This document shows, one piece after another, positions 1 to 8,921 of a DNA stretch of 8,921 bases (positions are counted from its first letter, which is position 1; each line of letters begins with the position of its first letter). The notes below the pieces were generated by a model, which saw nothing but the letters and a program-made list of their open reading frames with translations, was not told the DNA's origin and made no database searches. Location: IMG/VR virus record IMGVR_UViG_2671180636_000006; one strand, given 5' to 3'. Both the position numbers and the translations under genes were made by a program. The stretch comes from a virus (Duplodnaviria; Heunggongvirae; Uroviricota; Caudoviricetes).

Positions 1-33
<33 letters not shown>

Positions 34-81: not shown

Positions 82-151
82 GGGAATGTCTGACTCCTTA
101 CCATCTCCTGTTCTGTGATGTTGTTTTGTTGCAGTTCCAGTGCTCTTTTTT

Positions 152-232
152 CAGCACCAGAATGGTGCATTGTCGGTCAGGTTACGTAGTGAACCTCTGG
201 CAGGGGACTGATAATGCATCATTCTGGTGTTG
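152..232 (+). other. Long imperfect inverted repeat, predicted ~27-bp RNA hairpin with an internal stem-loop; candidate structured RNA or regulatory element
   Basis: Arms 152-178 and 206-232 pair at all 27 positions if G-T is allowed. The 4 non-Watson-Crick positions are all G/T on the + strand (G-U in + strand RNA, C/A on the other strand). The loop contains a nested hairpin AGGTT (179-183) / AACCT (192-196). Confidence 0.45.
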
Positions 233-480
233 TAAATATCTCTTCGGACAACTTACAAAATATTCTAAGCAAACCCCGGGAACACACTCTTAACTGCCTT
301 GGCTGGCGGTTTTTTGTACAGCGCTCGGTATGTGTGAGCTGGAAATCAGATTTTGCATGGACTGGAATCATGCTGTTATTTAGGGGCGAAGAACTGGCTT
401 TTTCTTCCGCCTTCTCACCAGTAACGATTAGAAAAATAATGAAATGCCCCCCTCCGGGGAGGAGGACCGTAGAAAAAAGG

Positions 481-538
481 ACCCGCCAGCAAAAACATTG
501 GGGATGAACAGCTTTCGCTACTCAGATTGCTGGCGGGT
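481..538. repeat. 11-bp perfect inverted repeat (ACCCGCCAGCA / TGCTGGCGGGT) separated by 36 nt
   Basis: Arm 481-491 is the exact reverse complement of arm 528-538. GC-rich stem, no downstream T-run, so not a classical terminator. Confidence 0.4.
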
Positions 539-646
539 AAAGTTCCTCATGAATTAAGAATGCTACGCGATCTTTTTTAATGGAAATGAAAATTATTGTC
601 AATTAGTCGTGCGTGTTTTTTCATACAATATTGGTAAAGGTGATTC

Positions 647-682
647 AGGCCATCAGAGTTTTGCTGATGGCCTTTTTTCTTT
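647..682 (+). terminator. Rho-independent terminator immediately upstream of the holin gene
   Basis: 10-bp stem AGGCCATCAG (647-656) / CTGATGGCCT (664-673), 7-nt loop AGTTTTG, followed by TTTTTTCTTT (673-682). On the opposite strand the hairpin is not followed by a T-run, so it is + strand specific. Confidence 0.75.
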
Positions 683-713
683 CCGATAGCACAGGTCTGT
701 CGGGGGGCGGGAT

Positions 714-989
714 ATGTATCAGATGGAAAAAATATCAACAGGCATTGCCTACGGCACCTCCGCCGGCAGTGCCGGCTACTGGTTTTTGCAGTGGTTGGAT
801 CAGGTCAGTCCATCACAGTGGGCTGCGATTGGTGTGCTGGGAAGTCTGCTTCTGGGGCTTCTGACTTATCTGACGAATCTGTATTTCAAAATAAGAGAAG
901 ATAAGCGTAAGTGGATTTGCCCCTATATTTCTCGCCATCATTACGCAAGGCTGTTGCAGTTGCTATTGGTGGCGGGGCTGTTGCTATAG
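714..989 (+). CDS. S: Class II holin / pinholin, phage 21 S-like, with a C-terminal extension relative to the ~71-aa form as I recall it
   Basis: [69 protein letters not shown]... closely resembles the phage 21 S pinholin as recalled. Two TM segments, dual start Met1/Met4, purine-rich SD (GGGGGCGGGA) before ATG 714. Stop TAG 987-989. Confidence 0.85.
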
Positions 990-1426
990 CATCTGTGTTA
1001 ATCACTGGCCCAGGTGGTAACGATGGTCTGGAAGGTGTCAGCTACATACTATACAAAGATATCATTGGTGTATGGACTGTATGTCACGGACACACCGGAA
1101 AAGACATCATGCTCGGTAAAACGTATACCGAAGCAGAATGCAAAGCCCTCCTGAATAAAGACCTTGCCACTGTCGCCAGACAAATTAACCCGTACATCAA
1201 AGTCGATATACCGGAAACAACGCGCGGCGCTCTTTACTCGTTCGTTTACAACGTGGGCGCTGGCAATTTCAGAACATCGACGCTTCTTCGCAAAATAAAC
1301 CAGGGCGATATCAAAGGCGCATGTGACCAGCTACGTCGCTGGACATATGCTGGCGGTAAGCAATGGAAAGGGCTGATGACCCGTCGTGAGATTGAGCGTG
1401 AAGTCTGTTTGTGGGGGCAGCAATGA
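911..1426 (+). CDS. R: SAR endolysin (phage 21 R-like lysozyme, T4-lysozyme/GH24 type)
   Basis: Translation ...[78 protein letters not shown]...REVCLWGQQ matches phage 21 R / DLP12 RrrD as recalled: Gly/Ala-rich N-terminal signal-anchor-release TM, then an E...D...T catalytic region. The frame opens at GTG 911 directly after TAA 908-910 and has no in-frame ATG upstream of the conserved region, so the start is GTG 911 or TTG 917. Stop TGA 1424-1426. Confidence 0.85.
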
Positions 1427-1752
1427 GCAGAGTCACCGCGATTATCTCCGCTCTGGTTATCTGCATCATCGTCCGCCTGTCATGGGCTGTTAATCATTAC
1501 CGTGATAACGCCATTACCTACAAAGAGCAGCGCGACAAAAACGCAAGAGAACTGAAGCTGGCGAACGCAACCATTACTGACATGCAGCAGNATGCACTCG
1601 ATGCTAAATACACGAAGGAGTTAGCTGATGCGAAAGCTGAAAATGATGCTCTTCGGCGCAAGCTTGATAATGGTGGTCGGGTGCTCGTCAAAGGAAAATG
1701 CCCTGTGCCATCCTCAGCCGAAACCTCCAGCGCCTCCGGCATGGGCAATGAT
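1423..1752 (+). CDS. Rz: Rz i-spanin (inner-membrane spanin subunit), 3' end masked
   Basis: ATG 1423 overlaps the endolysin stop (ATGA). [81 protein letters not shown]... is strongly similar to lambda Rz as recalled: N-terminal TM then a coiled-coil region. Runs into the N mask at 1753; contains one ambiguous base at 1591. Confidence 0.85.
1628..1752 (+). CDS. Rz1: Rz1 o-spanin (outer-membrane lipoprotein) embedded in the +1 frame of Rz, 3' end masked
   Basis: ATG 1628 preceded by AAGGAG at 8-nt spacing. [41 protein letters not shown]... has a signal peptide with lipobox (VVGC) followed by a Pro-rich segment ending PPAWAM, like lambda Rz1. Lies entirely inside Rz in a different frame. Confidence 0.8.
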
Positions 1753-2744
1753 NNNNNNNNNNNNNNNNNNNNNNNNNNNNNNNNNNNNNNNNNNNNNNNN
1801 NNNNNNNNNNNNNNNNNNNNNNNNNNNNNNNNNNNNNNNNNNNNNNNNNNNNNNNNNNNNNNNNNNNNNNNNNNNNNNNNNNNNNNNNNNNNNNNNNNNN
1901 NNNNNNNNNNNNNNNNNNNNNNNNNNNNNNNNNNNNNNNNNNNNNNNNNNNNNNNNNNNNNNNNNNNNNNNNNNNNNNNNNNNNNNNNNNNNNNNNNNNN
2001 NNNNNNNNNNNNNNNNNNNNNNNNNNNNNNNNNNNNNNNNNNNNNNNNNNNNNNNNNNNNNNNNNNNNNNNNNNNNNNNNNNNNNNNNNNNNNNNNNNNN
2101 NNNNNNNNNNNNNNNNNNNNNNNNNNNNNNNNNNNNNNNNNNNNNNNNNNNNNNNNNNNNNNNNNNNNNNNNNNNNNNNNNNNNNNNNNNNNNNNNNNNN
2201 NNNNNNNNNNNNNNNNNNNNNNNNNNNNNNNNNNNNNNNNNNNNNNNNNNNNNNNNNNNNNNNNNNNNNNNNNNNNNNNNNNNTGAGNNNNNNNNNNNNN
2301 NNNNNNNNNNNNNNNNNNNNNNNNNNNNNNNNNNNNNNNNNNNNNNNNNNNNNNNNNNNNNNNNNNNNNNNNNNNNNNNNNNNNNNNNNNNNNNNNNNNN
2401 NNNNNNNNNNNNNNNNNNNNNNNNNNNNNNNNNNNNNNNNNNNNNNNNNNNNNNNNNNNNNNNNNNNNNNNNNNNNNNNNNNNNNNNNNNNNNNNNNNNN
2501 NNNNNNNNNNNNNNNNNNNNNNNNNNNNNNNNNNNNNNNNNNNNNNNNNNNNNNNNNNNNNNNNNNNNNNNNNNNNNNNNNNNNNNNNNNNNNNNNNNNN
2601 NNTTTAGGCTTAAACACCTTACATTTACAAGGTACTCCTGTGGGGGGCCCTGCCACGGAGCGTCGCAGGAGTGAGTGATGAGGAAGAATTAAAGCAACCT
2701 ATTGTGACAGGCAGCGATAACAGTAAATCACAGGAAGCATAATC

Positions 2745-3509
2745 ATGGCAAAACCGGACTGGGAGGCCATCGAATCGGCATACCGGGCCGGAGTCCTTAG
2801 CCTCCGTGATATAGGCGAGAAATACGGCGTTACAGAAGGGGCTATCAGGAAGAGGGCCAAAAAGCTTGGTTGGGCACGCAGTGGCGGTACGCAGGTTTGC
2901 AAAAATGGTACGCAAAAAAGGAAAGTGCGTACCAGCAGAAAGCCTGCCATTACTGGCCTTACACAAAAAAGTACGCAACTAAAAACAGAATCTACACCGG
3001 ATACGAAACCGATACGCGGAATGCGTACCGATCCCCCGACTAACCCATTCCAACCCGGTAACCAGCAGGCATTAAAACACGGTGGTTATGCCCGTCGCCT
3101 TCTGCTCAAAGATGAGGTGATAGAGGACGCTAAAGCGTTGACGCTCGAGGACGAATTATTTCGCCTTCGTGCTAACAACCTTGTCGCTGCAGAGAATATT
3201 GGTCGGTGGTTGGTGTCGCTGGAAGATGCTAATGGGGACCAGGAAAGGAAGATGCTGATTGAAAATATCAGCGCCGCCGAGAAAGCAATGATGCGCAATA
3301 CAGTTCGTATTGAGTCCATCGTTGGCACGCTTGCGACGGTAGGAAAAATATTTGCTGATACAGCCTACCGCAAGGCCGCCACTGATAAGGTGTCTCTGGA
3401 GGCTGATCGTCTTCGCCGTGATGCAGGTATTGATGATGGCAATGGAGAGCGTGACCTCAATGACTTCTACTCTGACATCCAAACCGACGCTGAATCCGGC
3501 TTTACGTAG
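2745..3509 (+). CDS. Terminase small subunit (N-terminal HTH DNA-binding type)
   Basis: Complete 254-aa ORF with SD AGGAAG 7 nt before the ATG. N-terminus MAKPDWEAIESAYRAGVLSLRDIGEKYGVTEGAIRKRAKKLGW is the helix-turn-helix signature recalled from terminase small subunits that precede PBSX-type large terminases in enterobacterial prophages. Position directly upstream of the large terminase. Stop TAG 3507-3509. Confidence 0.75.
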   Translation: MAKPDWEAIESAYRAGVLSLRDIGEKYGVTEGAIRKRAKKLGWARSGGTQVCKNGTQKRKVRTSRKPAITGLTQKSTQLKTESTPDTKPIRGMRTDPPTNPFQPGNQQALKHGGYARRLLLKDEVIEDAKALTLEDELFRLRANNLVAAENIGRWLVSLEDANGDQERKMLIENISAAEKAMMRNTVRIESIVGTLATVGKIFADTAYRKAATDKVSLEADRLRRDAGIDDGNGERDLNDFYSDIQTDAESGFT

Positions 3510-5000
3510 TTTCTGGACTATGCGGGCACGTAACAAAGTGCTTTATGGTGGTCGGTCATCGTCAAAATCATGGGATGCCGCTGGCATTGCCATATTTCTG
3601 TCGAATAAATACACCCTGCGTTTTTGTTGTGCCCGTCAGATCCAGAATAAAATCGAAGAGTCGGTGTATACCCTGCTCAAAATTCAGATAGACAGGTTTG
3701 GTCTGCGGCACCGTTTCCGTATTCTGAACAACAAAATCATTAACCGGGTTACTGGCTCGGAATTTGTTTTTTATGGATTANNNNNNNNNNNNNNNNNNNN
3801 NNNNNNNNNNNNNNNNNNNNNNNNNNNNNNNNNNNNNNNNNNNNNNNNNNNNNNNNNNNNNNNNNNNNNNNNNNNNNNNNNNNNNNNNNNNNNNNNNNNN
3901 NNNNNNNNNNNNNNNNNNNNNNNNNNNNNNNNNNNNNNNNNNNNNNNNNNNNNNNNNNNNNNNNNNNNNNNNNNNNNNNNNNNNNNNNNNNNNNNNNNNN
4001 NNNNNNNNNNNNNNNNNNNNNNNNNNNNNNNNNNNNNNNNNNNNNNNNNNNNNNNNNNNNNNNNNNNNNNNNNNNNNNNNNNNNNNTAAGGTTATCGACG
4101 CGGCGCGACGCCGTGATCCGGATGGTTTTAAACATGTGTATGNNNNNNNNNNNNNNNNNNNNNNNNNNNNNNNNNNNNNNNNNNNNNNNNNNNNNNNNNN
4201 NNNNNNNNNNNNNNNNNNNNNNNNNNNNNNNNNNNNNNNNNNNNNNNNNNNNNNNNNNNNNNNNNNNNNNNNNNNNNNNNNNNNNNNNNNNNNNNNNNNN
4301 NNNNNNNNNNNNNNNNNNNNNNNNNNNNNNNNNNNNNNNNNNNNNNNNNNNNNNNNNNNNNNNNNNNNNNNNNNNNNNNNNNNNNNNNNNNNNNNNNNNN
4401 NNNNNNNNNNNNNNNNNNNNNNNNNNNNNNNNNNNNNNNNNNNNNNNNNNNNNNNNNNNNNNNNNNNNNNNNNNNNNNNNNNNNNNNNNNNNNNNNNNNN
4501 NNNNNNNNNNNNNNNNNNNNNNNNNNNNNNNNNNNNNNNNNNNNNNNNNNNNNNNNNNNNNNNNNNNNNNNNNNNNNNNNNNNNNNNNNNNNNNNNNNNN
4601 NNNNNNNNNNNNNNNNNNNNNNNNNNNNNNNNNNNNNNNNNNNNNNNNNNNNNNNNNNNNNNNNNNNNNNNNNNNNNNNNNNNNNNNNNNNNNNNNNNNN
4701 NNNNNNNNNNNNNNNNNNNNNNNNNNNNNNNNGTTTAACGCCATTAACAACGGAGAACAGTATCCTGTGGATGAGCTGATCAGCATAGATTCTCGTTGTC
4801 CGTTGCTTGAAAAGCTGAAACTGGAACTGACAACACCTCATCGTGATTTCGACCGTAACGGACGTGTGATGGTCGAAAGTAAAAAAGACCTCGCAAAACG
4901 CGAGATACCGTCACCAAACGTTGCTGATGCATTCATTATGGCCTTCGCGCCAATCGATACATCGCTGGATATCTGGGAACAGCTGGGGAGACAGGCCTGA
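3460..5000 (+). CDS. Terminase large subunit (PBSX/Terminase_3-like ATPase-nuclease), interrupted by two N-masked runs; visible fragments are in three different frames
   Basis: N-terminal fragment MTSTLTSKPTLNPALRSFWTMRARNKVLYGGRSSSKSWDAAGIAIF... has a Walker-A-like motif (GGRSSSKS). Middle island 4088-4141 reads KVIDAARRRDPDGFKHVY. C-terminal fragment 4733-5000 ends ...NVADAFIMAFAPIDTSLDIWEQLGRQA with stop TGA 4998-5000. Start ATG 3460 (SD GGAGAG upstream) is tentative; ATG 3442 or 3520 are alternatives. Confidence 0.75.
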
Positions 5001-6101
5001 TGGCACGAAACAAACAAGCCCTGCGGCGAACTGTGCAGGCCACAGCTGATGGTTATGAGAATTTTATTGCCCGCGTAGGGATGCAGACACCTAACCAGCA
5101 CTCAGCATCCACCTACCGGGCTAATTTCACCAGTCGTAACCGCATGCTGGTGGAATGGTCCTATCGTTCATCCTAGATCATCGGCGAAGCAGTCGATGCT
5201 ATCCCGGATGATATGACCCGCAAAGGCATTCGCATCACTTCGGAAATTGATGCAAAAGATCGTGGCATTCTCGAATCACAACTGGATGAGTTGCAAATCT
5301 GGGATGCGCTGAATGACGTGCTGAAATGGTCGCGCCTCTACGGCGGCGCGGTGGGTTTCATCATGATTGAGGGGTAGGCACCAATGACCCCGCTGCGACC
5401 CGAAACCATCGGTAAGGGCAAGTTTAAGGGGATTCTCCCGCTCGACCGCTGGATGGTCGACCCGGCACTGACCCGCCGCATTAAAGATATGGGGCCGGAC
5501 CTGGGTAAACCTGAGTTTTACGATGTGGTGACCACAGCAACGGGAATTCCTGCCTGGCGCATTCATCACAGTCGCCTGATTCGCTTTGATGGCGTCACGT
5601 TGCCATTTCAGCAGAAGATGACCGAGAACGAATGGGGAATGTCGGTTGTAGAGCGTATCTGGGATCGTCTTACCGCGTTCGACAGCGCTACTGTCGGCGC
5701 GGCGCAGCTGGTCTACAAGGCGCATTTGCGTACCTACAGCGTGGAGAAGCTACGCGAGCTTATCGCACTTGGTGGTCCTGCGTATGAAGCGTTGCTGAAG
5801 AATATCGACCTGATTCGACAGTTCCAGAGTAATGAAGGCATGACGCTCATGGACTCGCGGGATAAGTTTGAAACCCATCAGTACAGCTTCAGTGGTCTGG
5901 ATGACATCCTTTCGCAGTTTGTAGAACAGATTAGTGGCGCTGTTGGTATCCCACTGGTGCGGTTGTTCGGACAGTCCCCGAAAGGATTTTCTACCGGTGA
6001 TGCAGACCTTGCCAACTATTACGATCGCATCAGTTCGTTGCAGGAGAGGCGTTTACGTCTTCCGGTGCGGCGGATACTGGACATCATGCATCGTTCGGAA
6101 C
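5000..6101 (+). CDS. Portal protein, 3' end masked; ORF is interrupted by two in-frame TAG codons (5174-5176, 5375-5377), so possibly a pseudogene, or the functional start is the ATG at 5384
   Basis: ATG 5000 overlaps the terminase stop (ATGA). The same frame yields MARNKQALRRTVQATADGYENFIARVGMQTPNQ...WSYRSS, then a stop, then IIGEAVDAIPDDMTRKGIRITSEID...GFIMIEG, then a stop, then APMTPLRPETIGKGKFKGILPLDRWMVDP...RRILDIMHRSE. Protein-like throughout, and in the position expected for a portal between terminase and the Mu-F-like gene. Family assignment is by gene order and general resemblance, not a verified alignment. Confidence 0.7.
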
Positions 6102-6771
6102 NNNNNNNNNNNNNNNNNNNNNNNNNNNNNNNNNNNNNNNNNNNNNNNNNNNNNNNNNNNNNNNNNNNNNNNNNNNNNNNNNNNNNNNNNNNNNNNNNNN
6201 NNNNNNNNNNNNNNNNNNNNNNNNNNNNNNNNNNNNNNNNNNNNNNNNNNNNNNNNNNNNNNNNNNNNNNNNNNNNNNNNNNNNNNNNNNNNNNNNNNNN
6301 NNNNNNNNNNNNNNNNNNNNNNNNNNNNNNNNNNNNNNNNNNNNNNNNNNNNNNNNNNNNNNNNNNNNNNNNNNNNNNNNNNNNNNNNNNNNNNNNNNNN
6401 NNNNNNNNNNNNNNNNNNNNNNNNNNNNNNNNNNNNNNNNNNNNNNNNNNNNNNNNNNNNNNNNNNNNNNNNNNNNNNNNNNNNNNNNNNNNNNNNNNNN
6501 NNNNNNNNNNNNNNNNNNNNNNNNNNNNNNNNNNNNNNNNNNNNNNNNNNNNNNNNNNNNNNNNNNNNNNNNNNNNNNNNNNNNNNNNNNNNNNNNNNNN
6601 NNNNNNNNNNNNNNNNNNNNNNNNNNNNNNNNNNNNNNNNNNNNNNNNNNNNNNNNNNNNNNNNNNNNNNNNNNNNNNNNNNNNNNNNNNNNNNNNNNNN
6701 NNNNNNNNNNNNNNNNNNNNNNNNNNNNNNNNNNNNNNNNNNNNNNNNNNNNNNNNNNNNNNNNNNNNNNN

Positions 6772-7256
6772 AAAGCGCTCCTGTGGGCCAGGTGATGCAA
6801 TCCATCATCGCCGAACAGGTCAAGTACATCAAATCTCTGCCTCTCGAGGCCGCAGACAGGGTGTANNNNNNNNNNNNNNNNNNNNNNNNNNNNNNNNNNN
6901 NNNNNNNNNNNNNNNNNNNNNNNNNNNNNNNNNNNNNNNNNNNNNNNNNNNNNNNNNNNNNNNNNNNNNNNNNNNNNNNNNNNNNNNNNNNNNNNNNNNN
7001 NNNNNNNNNNNNNNNNNNNNNNNNNNNNNNNNNNNNNNNNNNNNNNNNNNNNNNNNNNNNNNNNNNNNNNNNNNNNNNNNNNNNNNNNNNNNNNNNNNNN
7101 NNNNNNNNNNNNNNNNNNNNNNNNNNNNNNNNNNNNNNNNNNNNNNNNNNNNNNNNNGACGGCATGACCGGCCACGCGGGCGAGCTGCCAAACTGCCGCT
7201 GCTATAAAGAGATCGTGTTTGTTCGCGTTCCATTCGCAATGAAAAGGGCAGCATAA
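6772..7256 (+). CDS. Head morphogenesis protein, Mu F-like / SPP1 gp7 family; C-terminal part only, largely masked
   Basis: Frame-0 fragments SAPVGQVMQSIIAEQVKYIKSLPLEAADRV (6774-6863) and DGMTGHAGELPNCRCYKEIVFVRVPFAMKRAA (7158-7253) with stop TAA 7254-7256. The H..ELPNCRCY segment resembles the conserved C-terminal NCRC motif of Mu F-like head morphogenesis proteins as recalled. Both fragments are in the same frame given the exact N-run length. Confidence 0.6.
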
Positions 7257-7304
7257 CCCATNNNNNNNNNNNNNNNNNNNNNNNNNNNNNNNNNNNNNNN
7301 NNNN

Positions 7305-8513
7305 TTTGAGACCAGGCTCGGGGAAACCCGATACCGCCTGGCTGACGGCTCGTTGCTGTGCAAAGACGTGCCGATAGGACGAACAGGTAAGCAGCTCTAT
7401 GGTGCTGATGACCTGCCAAAACTGAAACCCGATAAGTTCGGTGAAATAGTCGTCACGCGTTCTCCTGAGCAGGTATTCCATCCGGCCACGCTTGCCTCAT
7501 TCGAAGGGATGAGCATCACGATCCTGCATCCTGAAGATGAAAACGGGAATGTGCGGCTGGTAAATCCCGAGAACTGGAAAGAGCTTGCTGTCGGGCACCT
7601 CCAGAATGTCCGGCGCGGGACGGGTGAGCAGTCTGATTTGATGCTGGCTGACCTTATCGTCAAAGACGAAAGCGCCATTCAGCTTATCGAAGATGGCCTG
7701 CGCGAAGTGTCGTGCGGCTATGACGCGGAGTACGAGCAGACCGAGCCAGGTAAAGCCGAGCAGGTCGATATTACCGGAAACCATGTGGCTCTTGTCCCTA
7801 AAGGCAGAGCCGGAAATCGTTGTGCAATTGGAGACAGAGACACAATGGCAAATCAAAAGAAAAACTGGTGGAACCGCATGCGTGCGGCCATCAAGACAGG
7901 AGATGCCGACACCATGAACGAACTGGTGGAGTCGGCTCCCGCATCGGTTACAGGAGATGAGGGGGATTTGCCGCAGGGCGTTAATCTCAACATCAACCTG
8001 TCCCCGCAGCAACCACTACCGGACAAAGCACCAGAGATGGGCGGAGATCCAACCGGCGACAGTGATGATGACCTCAAAACATTACTGAAAGCCCTGCTGG
8101 CTAAGCTGGAAAGAAATGCCACGGGCGATAACGATAATAAGCCTGACGATAATCCGACCGGTGACGGCGAGGACGATGAAGAGGAAACCACGATTACTGG
8201 TGACTCAGCCTGGCGTGCCGAAGTTATCGTTCCGGGTATCGATCTGAGCCGTAAGATGAAACCGACCGCGTTCAAACGCGAGGTTCTGGCTTCTGCTGAC
8301 AAAACGCTGGTTCGCCAGATAGTCGGTGATGCGGATATCCGCAAATTACCGAAACAATCGGTCGACATGGCGTTTAATGCCGTGTCTGAGGTTGCCAAAG
8401 GGCGAAACACCCGCGCCACCACCGGCGATGCACAGCGCCTAAACATGGGCATGACCAGTATCGCTTCCCTGAACAAACAAAACGCTGAATTCTGGGCAAA
8501 CCGTAAAGGGTAA
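7305..8513 (+). CDS. Head assembly protein, probable scaffold (possibly scaffold/protease-type) with a conserved N-terminal domain and an acidic repeat-containing C-terminal half; true start is in the masked run upstream
   Basis: Open frame from the first unmasked base (FETRLGETRYRLADGSLLCKDVPIGRTGKQ...) to TAA 8511-8513. The 7353 start in the ORF track is a TTG and the frame is already open before it. Position between the Mu-F-like gene and a capsid-associated gene. Acidic, low-complexity C-terminal half (GDSDDDLKTLLKALLAKLERNATGDNDNKPDDNPTGDGEDDEEE) is typical of scaffolds. Confidence 0.55.
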   Translation, partial: FETRLGETRYRLADGSLLCKDVPIGRTGKQLYGADDLPKLKPDKFGEIVVTRSPEQVFHPATLASFEGMSITILHPEDENGNVRLVNPENWKELAVGHLQNVRRGTGEQSDLMLADLIVKDESAIQLIEDGLREVSCGYDAEYEQTEPGKAEQVDITGNHVALVPKGRAGNRCAIGDRDTMANQKKNWWNRMRAAIKTGDADTMNELVESAPASVTGDEGDLPQGVNLNINLSPQQPLPDKAPEMGGDPTGDSDDDLKTLLKALLAKLERNATGDNDNKPDDNPTGDGEDDEEETTITGDSAWRAEVIVPGIDLSRKMKPTAFKREVLASADKTLVRQIVGDADIRKLPKQSVDMAFNAVSEVAKGRNTRATTGDAQRLNMGMTSIASLNKQNAEFWANRKG

Positions 8514-8516
8514 AAA

Positions 8517-8921
8517 ATGAATAATGTATTTCTGTACCGGATGCCTGTTGGCATTGCCGGGGCTGTCTCTCGCCCGCAGGACTTAACCGTCGAACCGGTG
8601 GTCCTTAAATCCGATAACGCCTTCGCTGCCTATGGCCTGGCTGGTAAATACGATGATGACGGTTTTTTCGTGCCGCTGGCAGATGGTGATACCGCAGACA
8701 AGGTGAAGGGGATCTACGTGCGCCCTTATCCGACCACGTCGCAGCCGGACATGGTTCGCCAGGTGGGAACAGGCAAGAACTTCCCGGGCGACGCCATGAA
8801 GCGTGGCTACGTGACCGTTAATCTCGGTTCTGATTTTGATGCCAGCACTATCAAAAAAGGCGATCCGGTATACGTTGTCGTCTCCACTGATGAATCCATC
8901 AAAGTGCCGCTGGGTGGATTC
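8517..8921 (+). CDS. Phage capsid-associated structural protein (head decoration-like or capsid protein), N-terminal 135 codons; continues past the window end
   Basis: ATG 8517 preceded by AAGGG at 6-nt spacing, 4 bp after the scaffold stop. Open to the window end: MNNVFLYRMPVGIAGAVSRPQDLTVEPVVLKSDNAFAAYGLAGKYDDDGFFVPLADGDTADKVKGIYVRPYP... Product inferred mainly from position in the head module. Confidence 0.5.
   Translation, partial: MNNVFLYRMPVGIAGAVSRPQDLTVEPVVLKSDNAFAAYGLAGKYDDDGFFVPLADGDTADKVKGIYVRPYPTTSQPDMVRQVGTGKNFPGDAMKRGYVTVNLGSDFDASTIKKGDPVYVVVSTDESIKVPLGGF

Follow-up and report, generated by a model that had tools for sequence, protein, structure and literature searches.

The unusual junction between the holin and endolysin genes of this viral record most probably does not exist in the organism that the record came from. 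We estimate at about 90% the probability that it is an in-silico chimera, that is, a false join made in a draft assembly. The 20 nucleotides that make the junction anomalous are the tip of the insertion sequence IS2, closed genomes carry a complete IS2 at this very position, the shift relative to those genomes conserves length, the breakpoint moves between drafts, and the flanking endolysin gene is a mosaic of 2 paralogues; it is from these observations that we infer the making of the join in silico. As judged from the closed genomes, the real biology of the locus is ordinary: IS2 has inserted into the lysis cassette of a cryptic lambdoid prophage in decay.

The holin–endolysin junction as recorded

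The window, i.e., the whole stretch of 8,921 nucleotides that was analysed (IMG/VR record IMGVR_UViG_2671180636_000006), is a scaffold of a fragmented Shigella sonnei draft that was assembled from short reads, and S. sonnei chromosomes are 100% identical to it from position 2603 onward. Its lysis cassette is referred to here as cassette A and the prophage to which it belongs as prophage A. A second prophage, carrying cassette B, is present in S. sonnei isolates (L014, L018, L019, and L020); its holin (71 aa) is intact, its endolysin has 165 aa, its junction is uninterrupted and nearly identical to that of cassette A, and its packaging module is different. The features of the window are as follows.

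1–33, plus strand: 3' part of tRNA-Gly(TCC); the window starts inside the gene
714–911, plus strand: genuine codons 1–66 of a phage-21-type class II holin (pinholin), MYQMEKIS...KIREDKRK; PF04971
907–911: GTAAG, the 5-bp IS2 target site, duplicated across the full IS2 in closed genomes
912–931, minus strand: terminal 20 bp of the right inverted repeat of IS2, element reversed
931/932: probable chimeric join, with endolysin codon 2 directly after IS2 bp 20; 1336 bp lie between these bases in closed genomes
932–1426, plus strand: SAR-endolysin (R21/RrrD-type lysozyme), codon 2 to stop; PF00959; cassette A/B mosaic
1423–1752, plus strand: 5' part of an Rz-type spanin (annotated as "lysis protein"), with a single N at 1591
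2603–8921, plus strand: packaging and head genes of prophage A (hypothetical protein, Terminase_3, portal with premature stops, Mu_F-like, DUF2213)

The tRNA-Gly gene is the last of a cluster of 4 (Met/Ile-CAT, Arg-TCT, Thr-TGT, and Gly-TCC; L014 3729–4039), which in these prophages separates the antiterminator region from the lysis genes.

The junction sequence, as recorded, is confirmed. The holin ORF (714–989) encodes 91 aa, the first 66 of which are of the phage 21 type and the last 25 an added tail; the endolysin frame is closed by TAA 902–904 and TAA 908–910, has GTG at 911 and no ATG before SPSLRK, and overlaps the holin frame by 79 nt. All of this had been described in an earlier note on this DNA, and the phage 21 arrangement given there is also correct: in phage 21 and its close E. 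coli relatives, the holin ends in ...KRKAARGE-stop, overlapping the ATG of R. The note had left it to an alignment to tell an indel from substitutions. Aligned with phage 21, E. coli FDAARGOS_944 and CFSAN029787 (closest public relatives), the junction displays neither an indel nor a frameshift; the entire anomaly is a single equal-length block of 20 nt (912–931), with flanks identical to FDAARGOS_944. The block reads TGGATTTGCCCCTATATTTC in the window and GCTGCGAGAGGTGAATAATG in the closest relatives, where these 20 nt encode the last 5 holin codons, the stop, the GAGAGG Shine–Dalgarno (SD) sequence and the endolysin ATG. On inspection, the composition of the block does not fit the replaced bases in inverted, complemented or shuffled form; the block is IS2. 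In a search by exact sequence, the 91-aa protein was found in no species other than S. sonnei.

Both genes retain their family signatures outside the block. Holin residues 5–66 match PF04971 (P21 holin S, Phage_holin_2_1; E = 1.5e-34, 118 bits against a cut-off of 26, profile positions 1–62 of 64), and the match ends where the IS2-derived block begins. Class II holins have 2 transmembrane (TM) segments, a short charged C-terminus and a total length of about 71 aa, which is also the length of the intact paralogue in cassette B; the window ORF has 91 aa, with the AARGE tail replaced. The downstream ORF matches PF00959 (Phage_lysozyme; E = 7e-45), and its alignment with R21 revealed conservation of E35, D44, and T50, which we take to be the catalytic Glu-Asp-Thr triad, together with the SAR N-terminus. 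The endolysin's own ribosome-binding site and the ATG overlapping the holin stop (TAATG) are absent from the window, whereas the SD and ATG are present to the right of IS2 in closed genomes and in cassette B.

Read at face value, the recorded arrangement could represent a functional variant cassette, in which a pinholin with a long hydrophobic tail, possibly forming a third TM segment, is paired with a SAR endolysin initiated at GTG 911 or TTG 917. Both ORFs are open, the Pfam domains are kept, the endolysin retains E35, D44, and T50 as well as its SAR segment, and the tail was called hydrophobic in the earlier note. The third TM segment suggested there is not borne out, however: TMD2 is detected, with a score of 1.6–1.75, but the best 19-residue Kyte–Doolittle window in the tail reaches 0.92, and the tail is uncharged over a run of just 12 residues. 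Moreover, the tail is simply the endolysin SAR region in another frame plus the IS2 tip, the SD sequence is destroyed, the arrangement is conserved in no phage or finished genome, and the structure of the closed genomes contradicts it; the arguments for an artefact apply here as well. We regard a functional variant as scarcely credible.

A complete IS2 at the locus in closed genomes

Block 912–931 has the look of an IS2 end, and the match was tested: all 20 of its 20 positions are identical to the outermost right end of the IS2 annotated in FDAARGOS_943, which is bordered by a 5-bp duplication. Given the exact match to the IS2 tip, the 20-mer is not a chance sequence. In 6 closed or near-closed S. 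sonnei chromosomes (L008–L013), a complete IS2 of 1331 bp is present at 911/912 with GTAAG duplicated, the locus reading ...AAGCGTAAG, then the 1331-bp IS2 in reversed orientation, then GTAAG GCTGCGAGAGGTGAATAATG, then TCGCC.... To the right of IS2, these genomes have the GAGAGG SD sequence, the ATG and a 165-aa endolysin, with the genes further downstream as in the window, and the IS2 ORFs at the locus carry the HTH_Tnp_1 and rve domains. The locus in closed genomes is thus a canonical IS2 insertion with GTAAG target duplication. Consistently, the common S. sonnei form of the holin (P0002; 234 contig blocks, 18 of which are longer than 1 Mb) has the same breakpoint after KRK as the window, followed by LLSLNPLQARCRRYSRGER and read-through into the complete IS2.

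These results recast 2 further claims of the earlier note. Its alternative suggestion, a lesion in a degraded lysis cassette, was right as to the decay of the cassette but not as to the lesion, which is the insertion of a 1.3-kb IS2 after holin codon 66 and ahead of the endolysin SD/ATG rather than a 20-nt substitution. Close homologs with the same 91-aa holin, which the note had regarded as potential evidence for a normal variant, do exist, but they represent either the same artefact or the IS2 read-through form and not a conserved functional arrangement.

Compared with the closed structure, the window is without IS2 bp 21–1331 (1311 bp), the 5-bp duplication and a further 20 bp, in total 1336 bp. 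The missing length is exactly that of IS2 plus its target duplication, with the cut shifted by 20 nt, and the window therefore amounts to a same-length substitution of the uninterrupted sequence. No microhomology was found at the window breakpoint. Among E. coli complete genomes, no full IS2 was found at this site, and the chimeric junction is in no E. coli genome; over the junction, E. coli sequences reach at most 88.6% identity, owing to the mismatch in the block. Transposition or excision of IS2 (IS3-family copy-out-paste-in) is not known to leave a lone 20-bp tip behind.

In the closely related prophage of FDAARGOS_943, an independent IS2 insertion (duplication GCTGG; L005 4358–5686) splits the large terminase gene, and the head morphogenesis gene of this prophage has an internal stop.

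Draft assemblies, paralogous cassettes and the origin of the join

The same join is present in 5 further draft assemblies (L006, L007, L022, L023, and L024). One of them is L024, in which the IS2-derived part is 22 nt long (…TATATTTCCA followed by GCCATC…) and the endolysin resumes at 934, with the total length conserved. The L024 contig ends at 1183, compared with 1181 for the contigs L006 and L007, which have the 20-nt form; both ends lie downstream of the A/B single-nucleotide difference at 1147, which suggests that they were set by the k-mer length of the assembler (1147 + k − 1 gives k = 35 and 37). Join and contig end move together by 2 nt in L024, and the breakpoint thus tracks an assembly parameter. 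In a deletion that is inherited, the breakpoint cannot be displaced by 2 nt with the length left unchanged.

In the listed part of the cluster (15 of 18 members), the window-type protein is found only on contigs of at most 10 kb from a single accession series (CXDT, CXBY, CXCI, CXBR, and CXBC) and is absent from closed genomes, Logan assemblies and other submitters. The idea of a non-canonical, possibly functional junction put forward in the earlier note is not supported; the in-register overlay is present only in one series of draft assemblies. A real genomic feature is expected to recur in finished genomes or independent pipelines; the closed or near-closed genomes (n = 6) carry the full IS2 instead. 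In other drafts of this series, the right junction is rendered correctly, by contigs whose first base lies inside the IS2 left end.

Had a minor S. sonnei clade lost IS2 by an illegitimate deletion that left the terminal 20 bp in place, the junction would be a real scar, and removal of the holin stop and of the endolysin SD/ATG would have doubly inactivated the lysis cassette. Evidence in this direction, which also runs counter to an artefact, is that the identical 20-nt form occurs in 5 assemblies and the window, inside contigs without N, as an inherited allele would; de Bruijn contigs normally hold only k-mers found in reads, and the prophage is already decaying. Nevertheless, such a deletion would have to match IS2 and its target duplication in length to the base, at a 20-nt offset and without microhomology, and the length-neutral +2-nt breakpoint of L024 would require a second, independent and equally improbable event. 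Furthermore, the form is absent from closed genomes, Logan and other submitters (among the listed cluster members), and the A/B mosaic flanking it varies between isolates. Both parts of this reading, the deletion and the double inactivation, appear unlikely to us. Even less likely, in our view, is that the IS2-tip substitutions of 20 and 22 nt are real DNA, made by a process that recurs, preserves register and replaces target bases one-for-one with the transposon tip; the candidates for such a process, aberrant IS2 strand transfer or repair templated on the uninterrupted paralogous cassette, are improbable to the same degree. Replication slippage, gene conversion with cassette B and the figure-eight chemistry of the IS3 family were also considered, and, by reasoning, none of them yields a length-neutral product without microhomology.

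The flanking mosaic is apparent when the window is compared with the 2 cassettes. The window holin (714–911) carries the cassette A alleles G875 and T902. The window reads as cassette A at 875, 902, and 1050 (T1050), as cassette B at 1113, 1114, 1147, 1307, and 1334, and again as cassette A at 1474 (C1474) and 1647–1752, so that the window endolysin is an A-B-A mosaic; the mosaic of L006 and L007 differs, with the B allele at 1050. In the spanin gene, the single N at 1591 (1590–1592) stands for 16 nt of Rz/spanin, in which A and B differ at 4 close positions. This N marks a place where contigs were joined across a paralogue bubble that the assembly had not resolved; it is not a real 15-nt deletion.

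Other marks of scaffolding are found throughout the window. Positions 1–167 are present in prophage B (L014 4007–4173) and not beside cassette A in closed genomes, where an IS abuts position 168. With 1–167 from prophage B and 2603–8921 from prophage A, the window is of mixed origin. Between the N runs that interrupt it, 2603–8921 matches closed S. sonnei genomes at 100% identity. The N runs of the window (1753–2283, 2288–2602, and others) exceed by 15–141 nt the sequence that closed genomes have in their place, and a 4-nt island, TGAG (2284–2287), stands between 2 of them; these runs are scaffold gaps of the draft assembly, not masking. A DedA/VTT-domain gene on the minus strand lies wholly inside N runs. 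In L022 (541–591), an IS110-family element is rendered as its left flank, N and its last 50 nt, and the first base of L024 is the first base after this element; the element itself is an extra insertion in some S. sonnei lineages, about 10 bp upstream of the holin start (window about 704–707; L008 8532–9981).

Two side observations concern draft contigs. L006 (CXDT01000176.1), a 10-kb draft contig, comprises early genes of prophage B, IS1, regulatory genes of prophage A and another IS (features at 134–3939, 6637–7048, and 8369–10181), uses the same prophage B stretch twice, and is probably a composite scaffold. A holin variant found on 14 draft contigs (P0004) has the tail …SRHLFEVYWQ*, in which 29 nt of IS2 tip sequence run into the end of a pRha-like gene located elsewhere in the prophage region (on the minus strand of L012, around plus-strand position 2480), and may be a second short IS2-tip chimera.

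Under the explanation that we favour, the false join, the real chromosome would hold a cryptic lambdoid prophage with cassette A, a full IS2 after pinholin codon 66, and, beyond IS2, an endolysin with its own SD and ATG. Multicopy IS2 and the 2 paralogous cassettes would have been left unresolved by the assembler, which may have extended the left flank, specific to A, by a few bases of IS2 and then carried on in register along the uninterrupted path. In the outcome, 20 nt of the real junction would be overwritten by the IS2 tip and the rest of IS2 skipped. Both the 91-aa holin and the endolysin with GTG and no ATG would be reading-frame consequences of such a join.

A pipeline combining Velvet, SSPACE, and GapFiller has been used for 299 S. 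sonnei assemblies with an accession style and contig counts similar to those of the present drafts, and its authors state that greedy scaffolding and gap-filling can give false joins (PMC5320598). Several routes by which it could have produced the join were considered. GapFiller closes gaps only with an overlap of at least 10 nt (PMC3446322), and closure by this program is ruled against, as the start of the endolysin gene and the tip of IS2 were found to have no overlap of that length. That gap sizes were tracked exactly is contradicted by L015, in which 61 N stand in place of 1 nt, and by the over-long N runs of the window. A de Bruijn overhang of k − 1 with k = 21 or 23 fits the left side, but the right boundary is then expected at the target duplication (907), not at 932, and these values are also outside the range of k used in the pipeline, 66–90% of read length (PMC5320598). 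In Velvet bubble merging, the IS2 path would be far beyond the bubble limit and would not reconverge. No documented assembler rule that we tried reproduced the join.

The lysis cassette of prophage A and its relation to known systems

Judging from the closed genomes, the pinholin of prophage A would have lost its last 5 residues and gained 28 IS2-encoded residues, and the endolysin would be cut off from the late transcript by IS2. The endolysin beside IS2 in closed genomes (L008 11543–12040) differs from that of cassette B by 4 missense changes (P41L, L62P, D127Y, and R136C). The window endolysin has P41L alone of the 4, since the remainder of the gene is of the cassette B type (sites 1050, 1112–1114, 1307, and 1334). 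Decay extends to the portal gene (DUF1073/Phage_portal_3; window 5000–5384), which is split by 2 premature stops into ORFs at 5000–5176, 5213–5377, and from 5384 onward, the intact portal of E. coli FDAARGOS_944 being 488 aa long; the same stops are present in closed S. sonnei genomes, indicating that the pseudogenisation of the portal is real.

An IS-inactivated lysis cassette is expected in the IS-rich S. sonnei and is not novel, and the biological consequence of the finding is small. The case is rather a data-quality warning. The apparently false junction has already entered RefSeq/UniRef protein records, e.g., WP_252650247.1, a 91-aa "class II holin family protein", and such records might be mistaken for evidence of a novel holin topology or of an endolysin that starts without ATG. 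A same-length block that matches an IS tip and lies beside a paralogous repeat could serve as a signature for flagging errors of this type in draft genomes.

Among known lysis systems, the locus belongs with the phage 21 cassette (S21/R21/Rz-Rz1) and the DLP12 essD-rrrD-rzpD type, with which it shares the holin-endolysin-spanin order. Nucleotide identity to phage 21 is 90.5% over window positions 700–1450, and the PF04971 and PF00959 matches, the SAR N-terminus and E35/D44/T50 are likewise shared; the canonical ...KRKAARGE-TAATG overlap is kept in paralogue B and E. coli FDAARGOS_944. Unlike in phage 21, the real S. sonnei holin is without its last 5 residues and reads 28 codons into IS2, and the real endolysin is split from the holin and the late promoter by the 1.3-kb IS2. 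The N-terminus differs too, being MYQMEK (714–725) compared with MKSMDK in phage 21: the 2 Met codons are kept, with no Lys or Arg between them, and MYQMEK is common to the intact cassette B and E. coli FDAARGOS_944. With MYQM in place of MKSM, there is no equivalent of the Lys found in the antiholin form of the S21 dual start; in S21, the MKSM motif presumably gives an antiholin with an extra N-terminal positive charge.

As an assembly error, the junction departs from the false joins of short-read de Bruijn pipelines (Velvet, SSPACE, and GapFiller) in that we could not derive this in-register overlay from the published rules of these programs. It resembles them in the paralogue mosaics, the single-N joins at clusters of nucleotide differences, the over-long N runs, the 4-nt island, the contigs that start at or inside IS ends and the breakpoint that moves with the contig end. 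Compared with IS2 (IS3 family) insertions in Shigella prophages, the terminal inverted repeat in the window matches exactly, but the window has the 20-bp tip alone, with no second end, transposase ORFs or duplication. In closed genomes, the full set of features of a complete IS2, namely, both ends, the transposase ORFs and the 5-bp duplication, is present at the same site.
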